DNA of 64,000 nucleotides, taken from NCBI GenBank assembly GCA_000092065.1, contig CP000601.1; one strand, written 5' to 3'. Below are positions 3,217-59,897 of the stretch, one piece after another. The notes beneath the pieces are model-generated. The model ran no database searches. It worked only from the letters and a program-made list of their open reading frames with translations, and had not been told where the DNA came from. Source of the stretch: Ostreococcus lucimarinus (Eukaryota). The translations under genes and the position numbers were made by a program. Every line of letters starts with the position of its first letter. Position 1 is the first letter of the stretch.

Positions 3217-4860
3217 ATGGACGAGGACGGCGCGGGAGGATTCGCGCGACGGAGTCGAAATATATTCGCCGACGCGCAGCGACGGCAGTGGTGCAGAGAG
3301 CGGCAGATCGGGGAGCGACGGGGAGGCGCGGCGAGCGCGAAGACGGGGGCGACGGCGCTGCGGTGCTCGAATAAGCGCTTCGTGGAGGAATTGAGGCTGA
3401 GGGAGACGCTGGAGAAGCACGGTGGGTGCGTGAATTGCGTGAGTTGGAACGACGATGCGTCGCTGTTGATCTCTGGGAGCGATGATATGACGGTGTGCGT
3501 GTGGGGGTGCGGGGCGAAGATGCCGCTGAAGGGGTCGGCGTTCACGGGGCACACGCACAACGTCTTCGCGAGCGAATTCGTGCCGCAATCGAACAGCGCG
3601 TACTGCGTCACGACGTCCGCGGATGGAGACGTGCGGTTGGTGGATTTAGAGCGTGGGTTTCGAGGGCCCGCGCCCGCGCATTACGGTTATCGCCTGCGCG
3701 GGGCGAATCAACCGAATTCCGAGTGCAGTCGCTCGCTCTGGCACGGTCGAGGCGCGGGGATGGGGTTCGGCATGACGTTCGTGCCGAACGAACCGAATAC
3801 GTTTTTGTCGTGCCATCAAGACGGTCGCGTTCGTTTGTTCGACTTGAGGCAAAGTCACGGTGGTTTCGAAGGAAACTCACACGAAATCGTCGTCGATTTG
3901 AGCGCGTGCGGGCCGACGTCGGAAATCGTGTTCGACCCGACGGCGCCTACGACGTTCGCCGCGTGCTCGGACGATCCTCACGTGCGCGTGTTTGATCTCA
4001 GACACGTCAAGAGTAACCGGCGAGAAGCGGCGCGCGAATGTCCAGCGGCACCGAGTCCGAGCACGTCGCCCACGGGTCAACCGATGTTTCTGAGATCGCC
4101 TCGGCCTTCGATGAATCACGACATTCCGTGCGTCATGATGCTCAGTCCGCTCGAGCTCGGTCGAGGCGTGCGAAGCCCGGGCTTTGAGGGTATATCTGGC
4201 CTGGCTTACTCGTCCAAGGGCGAACTCGCGATTAACTGCAAAGGCGACGACGTGTACCTGTTGGACACTCGCCGAGCGGCGGCGAATATCAATTCTGAGG
4301 AACGTATTTTTAAGTCGTTCTCCGTGCCGTGGGAAATGCCGATCACGCATCAGGCGGCGAAGAGGTACGTCGGACGCAGAAATGTGAAAACCTTCTTAAA
4401 GGGTGTCGCTTTTATGTGCGACGATGAGTACGTCACGACGGGTGGTGACGATGGCAACGTATACGTCTGGCACAAAGATACGTGCGAGCTCGTGTGCAAA
4501 ATGCAAGCAGACAGTCAGGTGGTGAACACCGTTTTGCCGCACCCGCACTTGCCGACCATCGTGTGCTGCGGTATAGACAATCACGTGCGCGTCTTCGAAG
4601 CTGGTGATGGTGGAGTGCATCTCGGCACCCCTCCCATGCGCGATGAACACGACGCTTGGGGATTTGACGAAGAAGATGACGAGGAAGAAGAAGATACGGA
4701 TGAAGACGATGAAGACGAAGCGAGCACCGATAGCGACGACGACCACCGCGGCGAAAATCTCGCGAGATGGTCTCGAGCGCTCGTCGATGCTGCGGATGCG
4801 CCAGAAGAGGATGACGACGATGATGCCGACTTTGAACCTGATTCGATGCGCGAAAACTAA
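3217..4860 (+). CDS. WD40-repeat protein, DCAF8/WDR42-like (DDB1-CUL4 associated factor-like) with acidic C-terminal tail
   Basis: Conserved block RFVEELRLRETLEKHGGCVNCVSWNDDASLLISGSDDMTVCVW...HTHNVFASEFVPQSN...CVTTSADGDVRLVDL resembles DCAF8. Multiple WD repeats, C-terminal poly-D/E. ORF opens at 2983 inside a microsatellite; likely start is ATG 3217 (or 3082). Confidence 0.65.
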   Translation: MDEDGAGGFARRSRNIFADAQRRQWCRERQIGERRGGAASAKTGATALRCSNKRFVEELRLRETLEKHGGCVNCVSWNDDASLLISGSDDMTVCVWGCGAKMPLKGSAFTGHTHNVFASEFVPQSNSAYCVTTSADGDVRLVDLERGFRGPAPAHYGYRLRGANQPNSECSRSLWHGRGAGMGFGMTFVPNEPNTFLSCHQDGRVRLFDLRQSHGGFEGNSHEIVVDLSACGPTSEIVFDPTAPTTFAACSDDPHVRVFDLRHVKSNRREAARECPAAPSPSTSPTGQPMFLRSPRPSMNHDIPCVMMLSPLELGRGVRSPGFEGISGLAYSSKGELAINCKGDDVYLLDTRRAAANINSEERIFKSFSVPWEMPITHQAAKRYVGRRNVKTFLKGVAFMCDDEYVTTGGDDGNVYVWHKDTCELVCKMQADSQVVNTVLPHPHLPTIVCCGIDNHVRVFEAGDGGVHLGTPPMRDEHDAWGFDEEDDEEEEDTDEDDEDEASTDSDDDHRGENLARWSRALVDAADAPEEDDDDDADFEPDSMREN

Positions 4861-52659: not shown

Positions 52660-53628
52660 ATGCGCACGATGAAAAAGTGTGCGTCGCGTGACGTCACCGC
52701 ACACGGCGCCGCGACGCCGCGACGCGAGACGGTCGCGATGCACGGCGTCGTGGACGTCGTCCTGGACGATGCCCCCGAACCGTCGTGCGCCGTCGCCGTC
52801 GACGCGCTGACGTACGCGTACCCGGGATGCGACGCGGTGCTGCGCGATTGGAGCCTGCGCCTGCCGCCGGGGTCGAGGTGCTTGCTTTCCGGCGCGAACG
52901 GGGCGGGGAAGACGACGGCGCTGCACGTCATCGCGGGTAAAACCATGGTGAACGAAGACGTCGTGCGCGTGCTGGGACGACCGCCGTTTCACGACATCGC
53001 GCTCACGTGCGGGGGCGAGCTTTCTTACCTGGGCGCGCAGTGGCGGCGCAACATCGGAAGCGCGGGCGCGGACGTGCCCCTGCAAGGAGACATTTCGGCG
53101 AGGAAAATGATCGAGGGCGTCGCAGACGTGGACCCGGCGAGGCGAGAACGATTGGTGAAGCTGCTGGATGTGGATTTGGACTGGTCCATGAAGGCGTTGA
53201 GCGACGGACAACGACGTCGAGTTCAGATTTGTCTCGGACTCTTGAAGCCGTACAAGGTGTTGCTGTGCGACGAAATCACGGTGGATTTGGACATCCTCGG
53301 TCGGCTTGACTTGTTGGAGTTTTTCAAGGAAGAGTGCGAGGTGCGCGGGGCCACCATCGTGTACGCCACGCACATCTTCGATGGCATGGCGGATTGGATG
53401 ACGCACCTCGCGTTCACGTCCAACGGGCAGTTGAAGTATGGCGGCGCCAAGGTGGACATTCCGGAAATTCAAGGCACGAAACATTTATTGTCGACCATTG
53501 AAAAGTGGCTTCGCATCGATCGCGACGAGCGCCGCGCGCGAGAGGCGGCGGAACTCGCCGCCCCGACGGCGAAGAAAATCGACGCCGCGAGTCACTTCCA
53601 AACGAGGCACATGGCGTATTATAGATGA
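52660..53628 (+). CDS. ABC ATPase, CAF16-like / non-intrinsic ABC protein (ABCI type)
   Basis: Walker A SGANGAGKTTALHVIAG, signature LSDGQRRRVQIC, Walker B VLLCDEITVDLD, H-loop ATHIF. Confidence 0.8.
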   Translation: MRTMKKCASRDVTAHGAATPRRETVAMHGVVDVVLDDAPEPSCAVAVDALTYAYPGCDAVLRDWSLRLPPGSRCLLSGANGAGKTTALHVIAGKTMVNEDVVRVLGRPPFHDIALTCGGELSYLGAQWRRNIGSAGADVPLQGDISARKMIEGVADVDPARRERLVKLLDVDLDWSMKALSDGQRRRVQICLGLLKPYKVLLCDEITVDLDILGRLDLLEFFKEECEVRGATIVYATHIFDGMADWMTHLAFTSNGQLKYGGAKVDIPEIQGTKHLLSTIEKWLRIDRDERRAREAAELAAPTAKKIDAASHFQTRHMAYYR

Positions 53629-53836: not shown

Positions 53837-54643
53837 TCACTTAGAGTGCTTGGCGCTGTTGCAAATCGTCACGAAAGCCTCGCCGATCAAAGACGCGCCG
53901 CCGACGAGAAAGCCGTCAATGTCCTCTTTCTGAGCTAATTCGTCGCAGTTGCCGGCGTTGACGCTGCCGCCGTACTGAATGCGAATCTTCGACGCAATCG
54001 CCGGAGAAATATTATCCGCGCACCACTTGCGAATGCCCGCGTGCACTTCTTGCGCTTGGTCCGGCGTCGCGACCTTGCCGGTACCGATCGCCCAAACGGG
54101 CTCGTACGCGATGACGATGTTTTCCCAGTCCGCCGCGGTCACGACGTCGTTCACCGCCTTGAGTTGCGCGCGGCAAATATCCAGAGTCGTGCCCGCTTCG
54201 CGCTGTTCCAACGTCTCACCGATGCACAAAGCAACCTTCAATCCCTTGCTCAAGGCATATTTGGTCTTCTCCCCGACGAACTCGTTCGTCTCGCCGCAGA
54301 GCGCGCGGCGTTCGCTGTGCCCGAGAATCACCCACGGAATGTCGGCGTCGGCGAGCATATCCGCGCTCACCTCACCCGTGAACGCCCCACCCGCGGAGAC
54401 CCAACAGTTCTGCGCGGCGACGGCGTAGTTTTTGTTGTTGAGCTCCTTTTGCACTCGAGGAATGAAGACGAACGGAGGCGCGACGTAGACGTCAACGTCG
54501 GCGTCGATTTTCCCAGAGTTTAGTTCCTTCACGAGCGACTTGACGGACTCCGCCGTGCCGTTGCACTTCCAGTTCCCGCCGACGATAAATTTACCCGTGC
54601 CCGCATTCACGACGACGCTTCGTCGCTGCGCTGCGGCGTGCAC
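53837..54643 (-). CDS. TPI: Triosephosphate isomerase (TPI)
   Basis: [13 protein letters not shown], catalytic His (VILGHSERR) and Glu loop [16 protein letters not shown], phosphate loop IQYGGSV. The ORF as drawn begins at GTG (VHAAAQRR...) immediately after a CTGAC branch point/polypyrimidine/CAG acceptor, so a 5' exon must exist. Confidence 0.9.
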
Positions 54644-54923
54644 CTGCGCGAAGAATTCCAGAAAACCGCGTCGTCAGTCTCGCGCGTCGCTTTGGATAAC
54701 ACGCCCCGATCGCGCCGTCGCGCGCCGTCGAGGTCGACGCGACGTCTCCCCTCGTCGGCGCGCGCGTGATCCCTCGCGACCGTCGGTGTCGACGCCATCG
54801 TCGCCATCGACGCCTCGCGGTCCCCATCGTCGCGCGCATCCCGATCCGTCGCGTTCGATGGCGCGCCGATGGCGCCGATGGGGCGCCGATGGGGACACCG
54901 CCCCGTCGTCGTCCTCGGGCGCC

Positions 54924-55009
54924 GTTCGAACGCGTTCGCGCGCGTCGGCGTCGCGTCGATCGATCGTTCGCACCCTTTGCGATCGCGCCGTCGCCTTCAC
55001 GGCGCACGA
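54924..55009. repeat. 86-bp perfect direct repeat, copy 1 (overlaps the end of the ZnT9-like exon and its 5' splice junction)
   Basis: cgttcgaacgcgttcgcgcgcgtcggcgtcgcgtcgatcgatcgttcgcaccctttgcgatcgcgccgtcgccttcacggcgcacga is identical to 55931-56016. Confidence 0.9.
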
Positions 55010-55808
55010 GGTTACTGTTGATGAGGTACATTGCCGTCACCCCAAGAAGGCCACCGACAGCAATCGAGCCCATCGCGTCGTACATCGGACTCCCCGTCAC
55101 TTCGCACGCGATGAGCGCCGTACCCGCGATGCCACAACCCAACACCGCGGCAGCATCTTCTGCGAGCACGGCCACGCTGGTGGGATCTTTACCAGATTTG
55201 ATAAATTCCCTCAGCGTCATTCCTTGCGCCTTGGCGTTGTCGCGCAACGACTCGTACGCCACCTTTAACGAAAATCCTTCCAACAACGCCGACGCGCCCA
55301 ACACCGCGATCCCAATACGTATGTTTTCAGACGGCATCGGGTCCATCAACCCGTGCATCCCGTGCATCACGCTAAACCCAGCACCGAGAAAGAAAATTCC
55401 CACCGCGGAAATCAACGAATACACGAACCAACAAGTGCGAGTGAGGGCTTCGACGCGAGAGGCGATGGTTTTGGACTCTCGCGAACGCTCGGCGGCTTGG
55501 CGCCCGGCGGCGCGCGCGAACGTTTCGTAATCTTGTTCGGCTTGAGAGATGAACTTACGACTCGCGGCCTCGGACTCGACTCTGAACTCGTTCACGAGTG
55601 ACTCGATGCGCTCGCGCGCGATTCGTCGATTGCGTTCGGCGAGAGATTGCATCATTTGCTGGAATCCAACCATGTCGTAACGCGTCGAACGTTGACGCAC
55701 CGTCTCGCGCGTGTAGTACGCTCTCGCCGCGTCGTTCCACGCCCCCGACGTTCGCCCGGGCACGAGAACCACGGACCAGAGTAAAACCTTCGTAATCACC
55801 GATCGCAC
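54996..55808 (-). CDS. ZnT9 (SLC30A9)-like cation-diffusion-facilitator fragment: signal-anchor + coiled-coil + CDF TM4-TM6 only
   Basis: YSLISAVGIFFLGAGFSVMHGMHGLMDP, LRDNAKAQGMTLREFIKSGKDPTSVAVLAEDAAAVLGCGIAGTALI, GSPMYDAMGSIAVGGLLGVTAMYLINSNL match the ZnT9 TM4-TM6 region closely. The ORF then runs into a GTGCGC 5' splice consensus at 54995 and GC-tract junk. No TM1-3 or C-terminal CDF domain found nearby. Confidence 0.5.
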
Positions 55809-55930
55809 GCGCGCGCGTCGTCAGTCTCGCGTCGAGCCCGGTCGATCGCGCCGCGACACGCGCCTTCGCGATGATTCCGCGCGCGCCGCATCGCGTCGAC
55901 GAAATCGCGCACCTCGAGCGCGCAGATGAA

Positions 55931-56016
55931 GCGTTCGAACGCGTTCGCGCGCGTCGGCGTCGCGTCGATCGATCGTTCGCACCCTTTGCGATCGCGCCGT
56001 CGCCTTCACGGCGCAC
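55931..56016. repeat. 86-bp perfect direct repeat, copy 2 (upstream of the ZnT9-like ORF, in the divergent region before the SPP gene)
   Basis: Identical to 54924-55009, 1007 bp away. Confidence 0.9.
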
Positions 56017-56140
56017 GACGTCGTCGTCGTCGCCGACGGCGCGCACGTCACGCTAAACATCGCTCGCCGCACGCGTCGTCGCGAAGTGCCGGCGCGCGGT
56101 CGCCGAGGGCGATTTCGTTTTTTCGCGAACCATCGCGCGT

Positions 56141-56207
56141 CGATCGACGGACGTCGATCGATCGATCGATCGATCGAACGATCGACCGATCGATCGATCG
56201 ATCGACC
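56141..56207. repeat. (CGAT)n-type tandem repeat
   Basis: cgatcgatcgatcgatcgatcgaacgatcgaccgatcgatcgatcgatcgacc. Confidence 0.85.
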
Positions 56208-56399
56208 GCGCGCCAAGCCCCCTCGCGCCCGCGCGCGCGCCCGCCCAGGGTCCAGCGGTCCAGGGGCGGCGTCGAATCAATCGTCCGCCCTTCCGCAGTG
56301 CGCGGCGTGACCCCGGCGCCGGCGTCGCGCGCGCTTCGACGACGACGGTCCCGACGATCGGACGACCCGACGAACGCGCGCGCGCACGGCCGGATCGAC

Positions 56400-59300
56400 A
56401 TGGCGTCGCGCGTCTCCGCGAGCGGGCGCGCGAGCGCGAACGCGCGAGGAATCGTGACGCCGCATCGTCGGCGTGGACGGACGGCGACGACGACGAAACG
56501 GGCGACGCGAGGGCGACGGTGCGCGCGCGTCGTGCGCGCGAACGCGTCGTCGACGAACGGTGGGCCGGGGCGATGGGATCGCGCGATGCAGACGCTGTCA
56601 TCCGTCGCCGATCCCGCGGCGACGACGGCGATGCTGGACGAGCCTTTGACGCCGCACGAAGAGATTCGTCGAGGAACGCTCGCGAATGGGTTGAAGTACG
56701 TCATCTTACCGAACAAAGTTCCCGAGGGGAGATTTGAGGCGCACTTGGAGATGCACGTCGGGTCCGTGGACGAACGCGAAGACGAGCAAGGGCTGGCGCA
56801 CCTCGTCGAGCACGTCACGTTTTTGGGTTCTCGAAAACGAGATCAGTGGCTCGGGAGCGGTACGCGAGGGAACGCGTACACGGATTTCCACCACACCGTG
56901 TTCCACATCCACGCACCGACGACGAACAAGGATGGACATTACATGCCGCCCAACGTGCTGGACATTCTCTACGACGTCGCGTTTGCGCCGCAACTCTTGG
57001 ACACTCGCGTGGCGAAGGAGAAGAAAGCCGTGCTCGCCGAGGCTCAAATGATGAACACGATCGAGTACAGAGTGGACTGTCAGCTTCTAGAGCATTTGCA
57101 CTGGGACAACCTCTTGGGCACGCGATTTCCGATCGGTAAGCTCGATCAGGTGGAAGCGTGGCCGGCGCAGGCGGTGCGAGACTTTCACGCGCGCTGGTAT
57201 TTCCCAGCCAACGCCACGCTCTACGTCGTGGGCGACTTCGATGCCTCCGTGGACGAAGTCGAGGGTATGATTTCCGCCGCGTTCGACGAAGCGGCGCCCG
57301 CGGAAGGCGCGGAAGAAGCCGAGTCTCCTCTCAAACGTCACGCGGTGCGTCCTCCGGTGAAGCACGCGTACGGGGCGCCGTCGTACGAGCTCGACGAAAT
57401 TCAACGCTCGAACGACGAGGCGAAGGCGTCGGGCAAAGACGACCCGTTCTTGCCTTTCGTCGCCCCCGAGGGTAAAGTGTCCATGTTCCAGCACGAACAC
57501 TTGTCCAACGCGAGTTTCAACATATTTTCAAAATTGGCCGTCAAGCCGCTCGAAAAGATGGGCGACTTGCACCGGACGATTTTGCAGCGCATTGTGTTGT
57601 TGGTGTTGCAGAGCCGCATTCAGGCGAGATACGCGGAAACTAATGCGGATTACAAACGCATTGAACTCGATCATAGCGACAGCGCGAGAGAGGGGTGTTG
57701 CGTCAGCACCGTCACCGTGACGTGCGAGCCGAGAGAGTACGAATTCGCCTTGCAAGTCGCCGTCGAGGAATCTCGACGATTGCAAAAGTTTGGATTGACG
57801 CCGAGCGAGCTCGATCGTTTTAAGGCGGCGATGTTGAGAGATTCTGAACAGCTCGCGCAGCAGGCGGGATGCGTGCCGAGCCTCGAAAATCTCGACTTTG
57901 TCATGGAGCAGGACGCCTGCGGACACGTCGTCATGGACCAGGTCGCGGGTCACGAGGCCTTGGTGCGCATGTCTGATTACATCACGCTCGAGGCGTGCAA
58001 CGGCGCGTGCGATGAGCTTTTAGGTTTTATCGGTGAGTACGGCGTGGAGAACAATCGCAAACCGAACAGCGGTAAGTGCACCGCCATCGTCGCGTGCGTC
58101 CCAGCGACGATGACGAACGTCGACGGCGAGACGGTGCCGTTCGATATCACGCCCGAGCGCATAGAACAAGTTTTGGCGGCGGATTACGGTGAAATCACAG
58201 AGCCCGAGGATATCTTTGTGCCGGAGGTGTTGATTGCGGATGACGAAATCAACGCCCTCATCGAGCAAACGGCGCCGACGTTTACCGAGGCGACGTATCA
58301 CGAGCCGACCGGCGTGTACCAGCGCACGCTGAGTAACGGTATTCGCGTCAACTACAAGGTGCTCGACGCCGAGCCTGGGAGCGCGTTCTTACGACTCGTC
58401 GTCCCGGGTGGTCGTTCGGTTGAGAGCCCGAACATCGGGCCCGGCGGAATCGGTTCGTCGGCGGTCGGTTTGCGCACCGTGCAAGAGGCTGGCGACGTCG
58501 GCGAATGGTCGCGCAAGCAAATCGAGCTCTTGACGATGCAACACTTGCTCGTGTACGACGTCGAGCCCGAGGTCGAGTACATGTTTTTGGATTCCGCGTT
58601 CGCCACGGATGGAGGCTTGAGGACTATTCTCGAGATCATGCACCTCACGCTGACGAAGCCGACGTGGGACGAGCAAGCGCTCGAGCGCGTCAAGGACATT
58701 TACCGCATGTTTCAGATTAACACGAACAAGAACATCGAGTTGCTCACGCATGACACCGTCAACGCCGTGATTTACGAAGACCGAAGAATCATGGACCCGA
58801 ACAAGGAGGCACTCCAGGCGCTGACGCTGGATGGCGTTCGAGACATGATCGAAGCTCAATTCGCGAGCGGGGCTTTGGAACTCAACATCGTCGGCGACAT
58901 CATCCCCGAAGAAGTCGACGAAATGGTTCTCGCGTTTATGGGATCGATTCAGACCAAGCCCGCGCCGCCGTTGCCGCAAGTGCCCCCGCTGAAATTGAAA
59001 GAGGTGCCAAAGGATGATCCGGTGCGCGCGCAGCGGTTGTGGTTGAAGGACAGCGACGAAAGAGCGTGCGCGGTGGCCGCCGGACCGGGGCCATCCATGT
59101 GGGCGCCGATGACGAGTCTGTACTCTGAAATTCCGAGCTTTGTCAATCAAGACGCGTACACGCCGGAACAGATTGCAGCCTTGCGCGATCCCGTGAACGA
59201 GGTGGCGTCGGCGAAGGGGAACCCATTCGCACAGCAGTCTGCGCGACGCGCGAATTCTTTGGCGACGTATTGCGCGGGGATGATGCTCGCAGAAGTTATC

Positions 59301-59897
59301 GGTGGTAGATTGTTCACAACGGTGCGCGACGCGTTGGGTCTGACGTACGACTGCAACTTTACAATGTCGTTTGGATTACAAAACAACGACGCGACGACGT
59401 ACAGGTTGTTGGTGACGTCGACGCCGGAAAAAATTGATGAAGCTCTCAACGCCGGCGTGCGCGTGTTGCGTGGATTTCAGATGCAGCGCGTGAGCCAACG
59501 CGAGGTCGATCGCGCGCGTTTAACGCTGTTGAGTCGTCATGAGATGGATTTGAAGACGAACAACTACTGGGCCGATTTGATGCAGTGCACCAACACTCCA
59601 GATTTAGCGCCGCTGAAGAAGATTCAGTGCGTCGCTGATTTACCCCTCATGTACGACGCGATGACCGTGGACGATCTTCAAGAAGTTTACGATCGTCTCG
59701 GCTTGAGCGAAGGCGAGATCTTCACCAGCGTGACGATCGCCGGGCAGACAGAGCCGCCTCCATTCCTGTCGAAGAAGGACGTCGACGCCGCCGCGCTCGC
59801 CGCCCAGACGCTGACCGCCGCGCTTGGTGGCATCAACATCGCCGAAGCGATCAAGAGATTGAAGAAAGAGCAGTCTCCGTCCGCGAGCGCGGAGTAG
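56400..59897 (+). CDS. SPP: Stromal processing peptidase-like M16 zinc metallopeptidase (chloroplast SPP/CPE homolog)
   Basis: Transit-peptide-like MASRVSASGRASANARG.... Inverted zinc motif HLVEH in GLAHLVEHVTFLGSRKRDQWLGSGTRGNAYTDFHHTVFHIHAP, nearly identical in pattern to plant SPP (GIAHMIEHVAFLGSKKRE...NAYTDFHHTVFHIH). About 1165 aa multi-domain M16. ORF opens at 55926 in a GC tract; start ATG 56400. Confidence 0.85.
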   Translation: MASRVSASGRASANARGIVTPHRRRGRTATTTKRATRGRRCARVVRANASSTNGGPGRWDRAMQTLSSVADPAATTAMLDEPLTPHEEIRRGTLANGLKYVILPNKVPEGRFEAHLEMHVGSVDEREDEQGLAHLVEHVTFLGSRKRDQWLGSGTRGNAYTDFHHTVFHIHAPTTNKDGHYMPPNVLDILYDVAFAPQLLDTRVAKEKKAVLAEAQMMNTIEYRVDCQLLEHLHWDNLLGTRFPIGKLDQVEAWPAQAVRDFHARWYFPANATLYVVGDFDASVDEVEGMISAAFDEAAPAEGAEEAESPLKRHAVRPPVKHAYGAPSYELDEIQRSNDEAKASGKDDPFLPFVAPEGKVSMFQHEHLSNASFNIFSKLAVKPLEKMGDLHRTILQRIVLLVLQSRIQARYAETNADYKRIELDHSDSAREGCCVSTVTVTCEPREYEFALQVAVEESRRLQKFGLTPSELDRFKAAMLRDSEQLAQQAGCVPSLENLDFVMEQDACGHVVMDQVAGHEALVRMSDYITLEACNGACDELLGFIGEYGVENNRKPNSGKCTAIVACVPATMTNVDGETVPFDITPERIEQVLAADYGEITEPEDIFVPEVLIADDEINALIEQTAPTFTEATYHEPTGVYQRTLSNGIRVNYKVLDAEPGSAFLRLVVPGGRSVESPNIGPGGIGSSAVGLRTVQEAGDVGEWSRKQIELLTMQHLLVYDVEPEVEYMFLDSAFATDGGLRTILEIMHLTLTKPTWDEQALERVKDIYRMFQINTNKNIELLTHDTVNAVIYEDRRIMDPNKEALQALTLDGVRDMIEAQFASGALELNIVGDIIPEEVDEMVLAFMGSIQTKPAPPLPQVPPLKLKEVPKDDPVRAQRLWLKDSDERACAVAAGPGPSMWAPMTSLYSEIPSFVNQDAYTPEQIAALRDPVNEVASAKGNPFAQQSARRANSLATYCAGMMLAEVIGGRLFTTVRDALGLTYDCNFTMSFGLQNNDATTYRLLVTSTPEKIDEALNAGVRVLRGFQMQRVSQREVDRARLTLLSRHEMDLKTNNYWADLMQCTNTPDLAPLKKIQCVADLPLMYDAMTVDDLQEVYDRLGLSEGEIFTSVTIAGQTEPPPFLSKKDVDAAALAAQTLTAALGGINIAEAIKRLKKEQSPSASAE

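Follow-up and report, generated by a model that had tools for sequence, protein, structure and literature searches.

Multi-gene mosaics and captured genomic fragments have been described in several systems. LINE (long interspersed nuclear element)-mediated chimeric retrocopies fuse several transcripts in the same orientation and are flanked by target-site duplications: they are spliced, end in poly(A) and show duplications of 7-20 bp. Pack-MULE- and Helitron-type transposable elements also carry mosaics of fragments from multiple genes, often in the sense orientation. Fragments of DNA are likewise taken up at sites of repair: yeast breaks capture one or several of them (PMC1976456, PMC11724301), and in Chlamydomonas it is common for an insertion to be accompanied by a 'junk' genomic fragment, or by several of them, mostly below 300-500 bp and up to 1 kb in length (10.1101/464859). 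In Ostreococcus tauri, which encodes Ku70/80, Lig4 and Pol theta, the random integration of DNA used no homology and was accompanied by a 518-bp direct duplication of the target and by filler of unexplained origin (PMC8002553). Here we describe an insertion of three gene fragments in the gene for the plastid triosephosphate isomerase (TPI) of Ostreococcus lucimarinus, in a 64,000-nucleotide stretch of contig CP000601.1 (assembly GCA_000092065.1), hereinafter the window. The insertion is bounded by two copies of an 87-bp direct repeat. We consider it, with a probability of about 0.68, to be a strain-private structural mutation generated by the end-joining repair of a staggered break, in the course of which loose genomic fragments would have been captured.

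The insert between the two repeat copies is 922 bp long and resolves into a fragment of 253 bp (F1), a fragment of 242 bp (F2), 7 nt of filler and a fragment of 420 bp (F3) (Table 1). All three fragments are in the sense orientation with respect to one another and to TPI, and they share a single reading frame. The original prediction had read the minus-strand open reading frame (ORF) 55808-54996 as a single fragment of ZnT9, a transporter of the cation diffusion facilitator (CDF) type, with a Met start. When the translation of this ORF was searched against a collection of 5.8 billion proteins, each match was found to cover one part of it only: the ZnT9 proteins match the C-terminal half; the middle is 100% identical to P0014, a protein of 323 aa with no Pfam domain; and residues ~7-35 match the small membrane proteins P0055 and P0056. 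By tblastn, the ZnT9 match is placed at 55427-55011, that of P0014 at 55676-55437 and that of the small membrane proteins at 55790-55698. The first ~130 codons of the ORF are hence not ZnT9 at all: two other genes, together with intron sequence, supplied them, and the supposed Met start is in fact a GTG that belongs to an intron of the gene from which F1 derives. F2 gave no Pfam match, and a search of the PDB sequences with the mosaic ORF returned only noise.

The donors of the three fragments lie on three different contigs: the fragments are 99.6-100% identical to full-length genes in environmental contigs, and a tblastn search of the window recovered none of the three donor genes there. The perfect match of the captured fragments to one haplotype would imply that the donor belonged to the strain's own set of alleles, and on this sequence comparison the donor loci probably lie in the genome of the same strain. 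Between environmental haplotypes or lineages the donor loci differ by ~4-5% in nucleotide sequence (L031/L033 versus L032; L029 versus L030).

The similarity of this region to ZnT9/CDF transporters that was originally proposed is borne out by F3, which matches positions 69-190 of the 198 positions of the Pfam Cation_efflux model (E=5e-11) and has an exact nucleotide counterpart on the JGI contig L032 (Table 1). A full-length ZnT9 ortholog is present as an intronless ORF on this environmental contig, and the source region of F3 sits within it. Compared with the SLC30A9/ZnT9 CDF transporters, F3 is an exact copy of the species' own ~TM3-TM6 (transmembrane helices 3 to 6), but it comprises only 139 of ~480 codons and has no start: the N-terminus, TM1-2 and the C-terminal domain are missing, such that F3 is not a complete CDF gene, and the intact gene is found elsewhere (L032). 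As noted in the original prediction, there are no other CDF exons nearby. Because the ZnT9 gene runs from INSN into RLLLL without interruption, the end of F3 is a breakpoint rather than an exon boundary. A foreign or old origin of F3 had been suggested by the best match in the protein collection and among all members of six clusters (87% at the amino acid and 76% at the nucleotide level); it was dropped once the match at all 420 positions was found in the JGI data.

F1 is a genomic, intron-containing copy of its source. The introns that it carries are missing from the spliced transcript contigs of the donor gene (L002-4, L025-28), and they are present in its genomic read-through ORFs P0053 and P0058. 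That the 'intron' of F1 could be a separate inserted element, as it is lacking in L025-28, was ruled out: the genomic contigs L029 and L030 contain it, as do P0053 and P0058. Near 55690, 12 nt from the junction with F2, F1 shows a deletion of 1 nt in a run of CC (CGTTCGACG in the window versus CGTTCCGACG in both genomic parents). Over the 915 bp of captured DNA, nothing else differs from the donors; the deletion could have its source in faulty repair, in an allele or in an error of sequencing.

These introns bear directly on an RNA-mediated origin of the mosaic, in which a reverse transcriptase would have jumped among three (pre-)mRNAs and the resulting cDNA would have been integrated with a long target-site duplication. 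L1 chimeric retrogenes resemble this picture. All fragments lie within transcribed gene bodies, and the extra nucleotides at one junction along with the lack of microhomology are like those of end-to-end template jumping. Furthermore, because all fragments are sense to one another, an RNA-templated route gains some weight. What nevertheless disfavours it is the intron sequence kept in F1, one full intron of 125 nt and the beginning of another, all of which is removed in every transcript contig. Moreover, poly(A) and 3'-end sequence are both missing, the fragments come from the interior of their genes and no reverse-transcriptase element is seen near the site. We hence regard this route as quite unlikely.

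The repeat that bounds the insert is a perfect 87-bp direct repeat with a spacing of 1009 bp, as obtained by reading the minus strand and by a repeat scan. The original prediction was right in recognizing perfect direct repeats here, but it had them 86 bp long, at 54924-55009 and 55931-56016, with a spacing of 1007. It had further taken them to duplicate the exon/5' splice site junction of ZnT9, with INSNL ending at a GTGCGC at 54995. However, INSNL ends at 55008, 12 bp away, and GTGCGC is at 55007-55002. The repeat is not a ZnT9 splice junction, since the ZnT9 gene of L032 reads contiguously from INSN to RLLLL at this point and the repeated sequence is that of TPI exon 1 and intron 1: it is a target-site duplication of the TPI exon 1/intron 1 region. 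In copy A, 36 nt form the end of TPI exon 1 and the 51 nt that follow are the beginning of intron 1. Copy B holds a second version of the native splice donor (GT at 54973-54972) and a second, unused GTGCGC at the position given above. This pair is the sole long direct repeat of high identity within the 64-kb window, the remaining repeat families of which are low-complexity runs of acidic codons. Perfect short palindromes are present at both edges of the 87-bp target, namely CGACGTCG upstream and CGTTCGAACG downstream (positions 56019-56015 and 54932-54923); they may be due to chance in a CG-rich genome or be tied to the positions of nicks.

The site without the insert is widely represented in environmental sequence. 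The insert is missing from all 11 of the environmental contigs examined, ten conspecific ones and L009 from a sister lineage, and each of them aligns through a single copy of the repeat. The conspecific contigs are 98.8-99.97% identical to the window over ~7 kb and have exactly one 87-mer each. When 1009 bp are taken out of the window, it shows 0 mismatches in 192 bp with nine of these ten contigs and 1 mismatch with the tenth (L019). The sister-lineage contig is 90-95% identical in nucleotide sequence and has the same gene order (M16 peptidase, TPI, ABC ATPase). Since excision of 1009 bp restores the conspecific sequence exactly, the insertion was precise: it was accompanied by an 87-bp target duplication and no target base was lost. 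From these alignments, the insertion appears to be derived in the lineage of the window, private to the strain and very recent. We rejected the converse, an ancestral insert that recombination between the repeats would have removed elsewhere: the fragments are undiverged from their donors, and the sister lineage is also empty. No second copy of the mosaic was found in the window, the JGI metagenomes or the protein collection. Likewise, the JGI metagenomes contain no match to a 30-mer that spans the F2/F3 junction, and the mosaic ORFs of 405 and 360 aa, looked up as exact sequences in the protein collection, returned nothing. The claim of a recently duplicated gene fragment at the 5' end of TPI, marked by long perfect repeats, accordingly stands in outline, the fragment being a patchwork of three genes and not ZnT9 alone.

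The absence of the insert from 11 independent contigs, the JGI metagenomes and the gene collection would also be expected of an assembly or library artefact, such as a chimeric read or clone or an in-vitro template switch, in which case the site would be empty in the living strain. Ligation in vitro yields blunt joins of short fragments, and a sequencing error could account for the 1-nt deletion in the CC run near the F1/F2 junction. Against this, the two flanks belong to one locus, are in the same orientation and share an overlap of exactly 87 bp, without the loss of a base. Random ligation in vitro essentially never rejoins the two halves of one locus, whereas the ends of a break are held together in vivo; further, apart from one indel the fragments agree with their parents over all 915 bp. 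An artefact is thus disfavoured because of the exact overlap of flanks from a single locus, and we consider it unlikely.

Taken as a real feature of the genome, the insertion looks like a repair scar and not a ZnT9-TPI fusion gene. The following steps would account for it: a break with ends staggered by 87 nt would have formed ~70-157 nt downstream of the TPI transcription start, across the boundary of exon 1 and intron 1; fill-in of both overhangs would then have duplicated 87 bp; three loose double-stranded pieces of the cell's own genome (253, 242 and 420 bp, from three unlinked genes) would have been blunt-ligated between the ends, with 7 untemplated nt at one junction; and the ends would finally have been rejoined by a pathway of the non-homologous end-joining type. 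We infer the staggered break, the fill-in and the enzymology from the final arrangement. The features by which capture during end joining is recognized are present: the donors are non-adjacent, excision restores the empty site and the junctions are without microhomology. Specifically, microhomology is 0 nt at the repeat/F1, F1/F2 and F3/repeat junctions, and the fourth junction (F2/F3) has the 7-nt filler.

The same junctions speak to replicative template switching (fork stalling and template switching, FoSTeS, or MMBIR, which stands for microhomology-mediated break-induced replication), whereby a fork would have copied three distant templates and returned to a point 87 bp behind its departure. 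This scenario has the merit that one process covers both the flanking duplication and the multi-template insertion, and complex multi-donor templated insertions are known (PMC11724301). However, such switching primes on microhomology, of which there is none at the three direct junctions, and the fourth has an untemplated filler. As it is disfavoured by these blunt junctions, we see only a slim chance for it. Nor do the ends of the insert (55931 and 55010) or its sequence show terminal inverted repeats, poly(A) or the backbone of an element. A transposable element with captured gene fragments (Pack-MULE, Helitron or similar) would suit the sense, multi-gene make-up of the mosaic. Yet neither terminal inverted repeats nor Helitron termini were found; an 87-bp duplication fits no known DNA transposon; the mosaic is single-copy everywhere that was searched; and three donors plus 7 nt make up the whole 922 bp, which leaves no element backbone. 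This explanation is hardly credible.

Several points weigh against end-joining capture and keep its probability at the level given above. The 87-bp duplication is longer than most duplications formed by end joining; in Chlamydomonas, 98% of target duplications are below 10 bp and the maximum is ~30 bp (10.1101/464859). All three fragments are sense (chance 1/8) and in one frame (chance 1/9), and random ligation predicts neither. The insert is known from assembled sequence alone, which leaves room for an assembly or library artefact, and the donors of the fragments were located in environmental contigs only and not in the same assembly.

The host gene is that of the plastid TPI: its product has a TIM-barrel preceded by a transit peptide that is encoded by exons 1 and 2 (Table 1). 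The product of exon 1 reads MFSV...ARSQR, and the exon ends at the donor AGG/GTGCGA with its GT at 55982-55981. In the cDNA assemblies L079-81, window positions 56090-55983 are joined straight to 54643 onward. The product of the spliced exons 1 and 2 (294 aa) equals residues 5-298 of P0192 exactly; this protein and P0191, members of one cluster with 298 aa each, carry MFSVTCAPSATTTTSCAVKATARSQR before the sequence encoded by exon 2. The annotated TPI of O. tauri (CEF98905.1) has an intron at the same place and the same structure. The original prediction correctly saw that the conserved TPI ORF begins at a 3' splice site: the acceptor CAG at 54646-54644, which follows a branch-point-like CTGAC (54677-54673) and a pyrimidine tract, is used in the cDNA contigs. 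Both of the splice models built on it are refuted, however, because the cDNA contigs join exon 1 (56060-55983) to this acceptor at 54644. The transit-peptide exon proposed at ATG 54807 is intronic, given that L079-L081 and P0191/P0192 join 55983 to 54643. A ZnT9::TPI chimera via the GTGCGC at 55007 fails as well: the same sequence lies within exon 1 of every cDNA, in copy A, and is unspliced.

By virtue of the insert, intron 1 is enlarged from 330 to 1339 nt, with the TPI coding exons intact. Around the 87-nt phase-0/0 exon of F1, the enlarged intron has splice signals of a functional type in the sense orientation, namely the acceptor and the donor of F1, which are proven splice sites of its donor gene. 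Normal TPI should still be produced by splicing from exon 1 to the old acceptor, and aberrant isoforms are possible. The cDNA contigs show the exon 1-exon 2 join only, and the strains from which they derive possibly lack the insert. An isoform with the cassette (exon 1, the 87-nt exon and exon 2) computes to an in-frame protein of 323 aa. It is conceivable, though doubtful, that the locus represents exon shuffling at its first step, with a share of the TPI mRNAs including the 87-nt exon, or with the whole in-frame mosaic serving as an N-terminal extension. If so, the 87-nt exon would add 29 residues (VLLWSVVLVPGRTSGAWNDAARAYYTRET) to the transit peptide, and the arrangement of all pieces in sense and in one frame would reflect an RNA-guided process or survival bias rather than chance.

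The reading of the original prediction would be exon capture that yields an expressed chimera, in the form of a ZnT9-fragment::TPI fusion or else of a new first exon of TPI. The mosaic is a single open frame, which would be in frame with exon 2 were the GTGCGC at 55007 a donor and which is in frame with exon 1 through the proven acceptor of F1; the available cDNAs may, again, derive from strains without the insert. Nonetheless, the cDNAs join exon 1 directly to exon 2, and GTGCGC is unused in the native copy. In copy B, the frame is lost at the proven donor GTGCGA, which stands in phase 1 to the mosaic ORF and leads to a stop after 34 codons. In addition, the start of the ORF is a GTG within intron sequence, and 0 of the 5.8 billion proteins span two of the fragments or join a fragment to TPI. 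We consider an expressed chimera very unlikely.

Table 1. Features of the TPI locus and of the insert in its first intron; positions are those of the window
Feature	Positions	Strand	Basis
TPI exon 1, ATG at 56060, encodes MFSVTCAPSATTTTSCAVKATARSQR (N-terminal part of transit peptide)	55983..56060	-	cDNA contigs L079-L081
Repeat copy A (upstream copy of target-site duplication)	55932..56018	.	identical to copy B
F1, 253 bp, small membrane-protein gene (P0056/P0225 family)	55679..55931	-	253/254 versus genomic contig L030 546-799
F1 end of exon, 19 nt	55931-55913	-	part of F1
F1 complete intron, 125 nt, GTGCGC...CTGAC...AAG	55912-55788	-	part of F1
F1 complete exon, 87 nt, phase-0/0	55787-55701	-	part of F1
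F1 start of next intron, 22 nt	55700-55679	-	part of F1
F2, 242 bp, codons 160-239 of the P0014 gene (323 aa)	55437..55678	-	242/242 versus L001 3731-3972
Filler ACTTGTT, 7 nt, between F2 and F3	55430..55436	-	matches neither parent
F3, 420 bp, internal part of ZnT9/SLC30A9-type CDF, ~TM3-TM6	55010..55429	-	420/420 versus JGI contig L032 2999-3418
Repeat copy B (downstream copy of target-site duplication)	54923..55009	.	inside enlarged TPI intron 1
TPI intron 1, remainder	54644..54922	-	collinear with empty-site contigs, absent from cDNA contigs
TPI exon 2, rest of transit peptide, whole TIM barrel and stop	53837..54643	-	Pfam TIM E=1.9e-92; identical to P0188

The TPI protein of the window shares 87% identity with the cluster to which O. 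tauri TPI belongs and 75% with the Bathycoccus cluster. It is found in 828 blocks of the collection, and its source is abundant in marine metagenomes. In exon 1, the sister-lineage contig L009 (~4640-4660 versus window 56010-56000) has an extra in-frame GGC codon (KGATARSQR versus KATARSQR); such an in-frame indel of 3 nt is consistent with the short exon 1 being coding. In intron 1, short tandem CCATCGGCG-like repeats occupy 54850-54900, where L009 differs by a 7-nt indel. TPI is divergent from a gene for an M16 peptidase of the stromal or presequence type (56401-59897, plus strand) and convergent with a gene for an ABC-type ATPase (52660-53628, plus strand). The order peptidase-TPI-ATPase is kept in all same-species contigs and in L009, and is rearranged in the more distant, O. 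tauri-like L010 and L012. The divergent promoter region shared by TPI and the peptidase is ~340 bp long, its limits being the 5' end of the TPI cDNA at ~56088 and the ATG of the peptidase at ~56401. It contains a palindromic (CGAT)n/TCGATCGA microsatellite at 56146-56216, within which the alignment of L020 breaks at 56172-56179, suggesting a length polymorphism. The window as a whole has a GC content of 59.9%. Low-complexity coding repeats of GAC/GTC (Asp/Glu-rich) are numerous in it, e.g. at 22.5, 24.3, 33.7-33.9 and 46.0 kb, and an Rfam scan of positions 1-64000 gave no family at the gathering score.

The locus offers a natural case in which DNA from several donors was captured and a long stretch of the target duplicated, with all three donors, the empty site and each of the junctions resolved to the base. 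Its setting is the 5' end of the gene for plastid TPI, in a genome that ranks among the most compact of the eukaryotes. It illustrates how gene fragments with working splice sites can land in an intron and thus furnish raw material for exon shuffling. It also carries a warning for annotation: a long, clean ORF with a strong domain match can be a repair scar. As one private variant, of a mutational class already known, it is of modest general significance unless events of this kind turn out to be common in Mamiellophyceae; the class of mutation is ordinary, and the locus is an unusually well-resolved and tidy instance of it.

Among the known systems, the LINE-mediated chimeric retrocopies differ from the TPI insert, which keeps an intron, lacks poly(A) and has a duplication of 87 bp. 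The templated insertions at double-strand breaks of yeast and cancer genomes comprise pieces of 0.1-1.5 kb from one or more distant loci, and their capture needs the end-joining machinery (PMC11724301, PMC1976456). In yeast, however, the capture of multiple fragments mostly involves annealing of short complementary sequences, whereas the junctions of the TPI insert are blunt, and the complex events often contain inverted pairs from one locus, unlike the present one (PMC11724301, PMC1976456). In the Chlamydomonas mutants, too, short pieces of the organism's own genome from distant loci are ligated into a break, but those fragments accompany an electroporated cassette and are thought to come from lysed cells (10.1101/464859). 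The integration described in O. tauri resembles the TPI insert in that the target is directly duplicated over a long stretch (518 bp, as against 87 bp in TPI) and a short filler lies at a junction; that case concerns a transforming plasmid delivered with polyethylene glycol, whereas the present insert is vector-free and consists of three endogenous fragments, with no known experimental treatment (PMC8002553).

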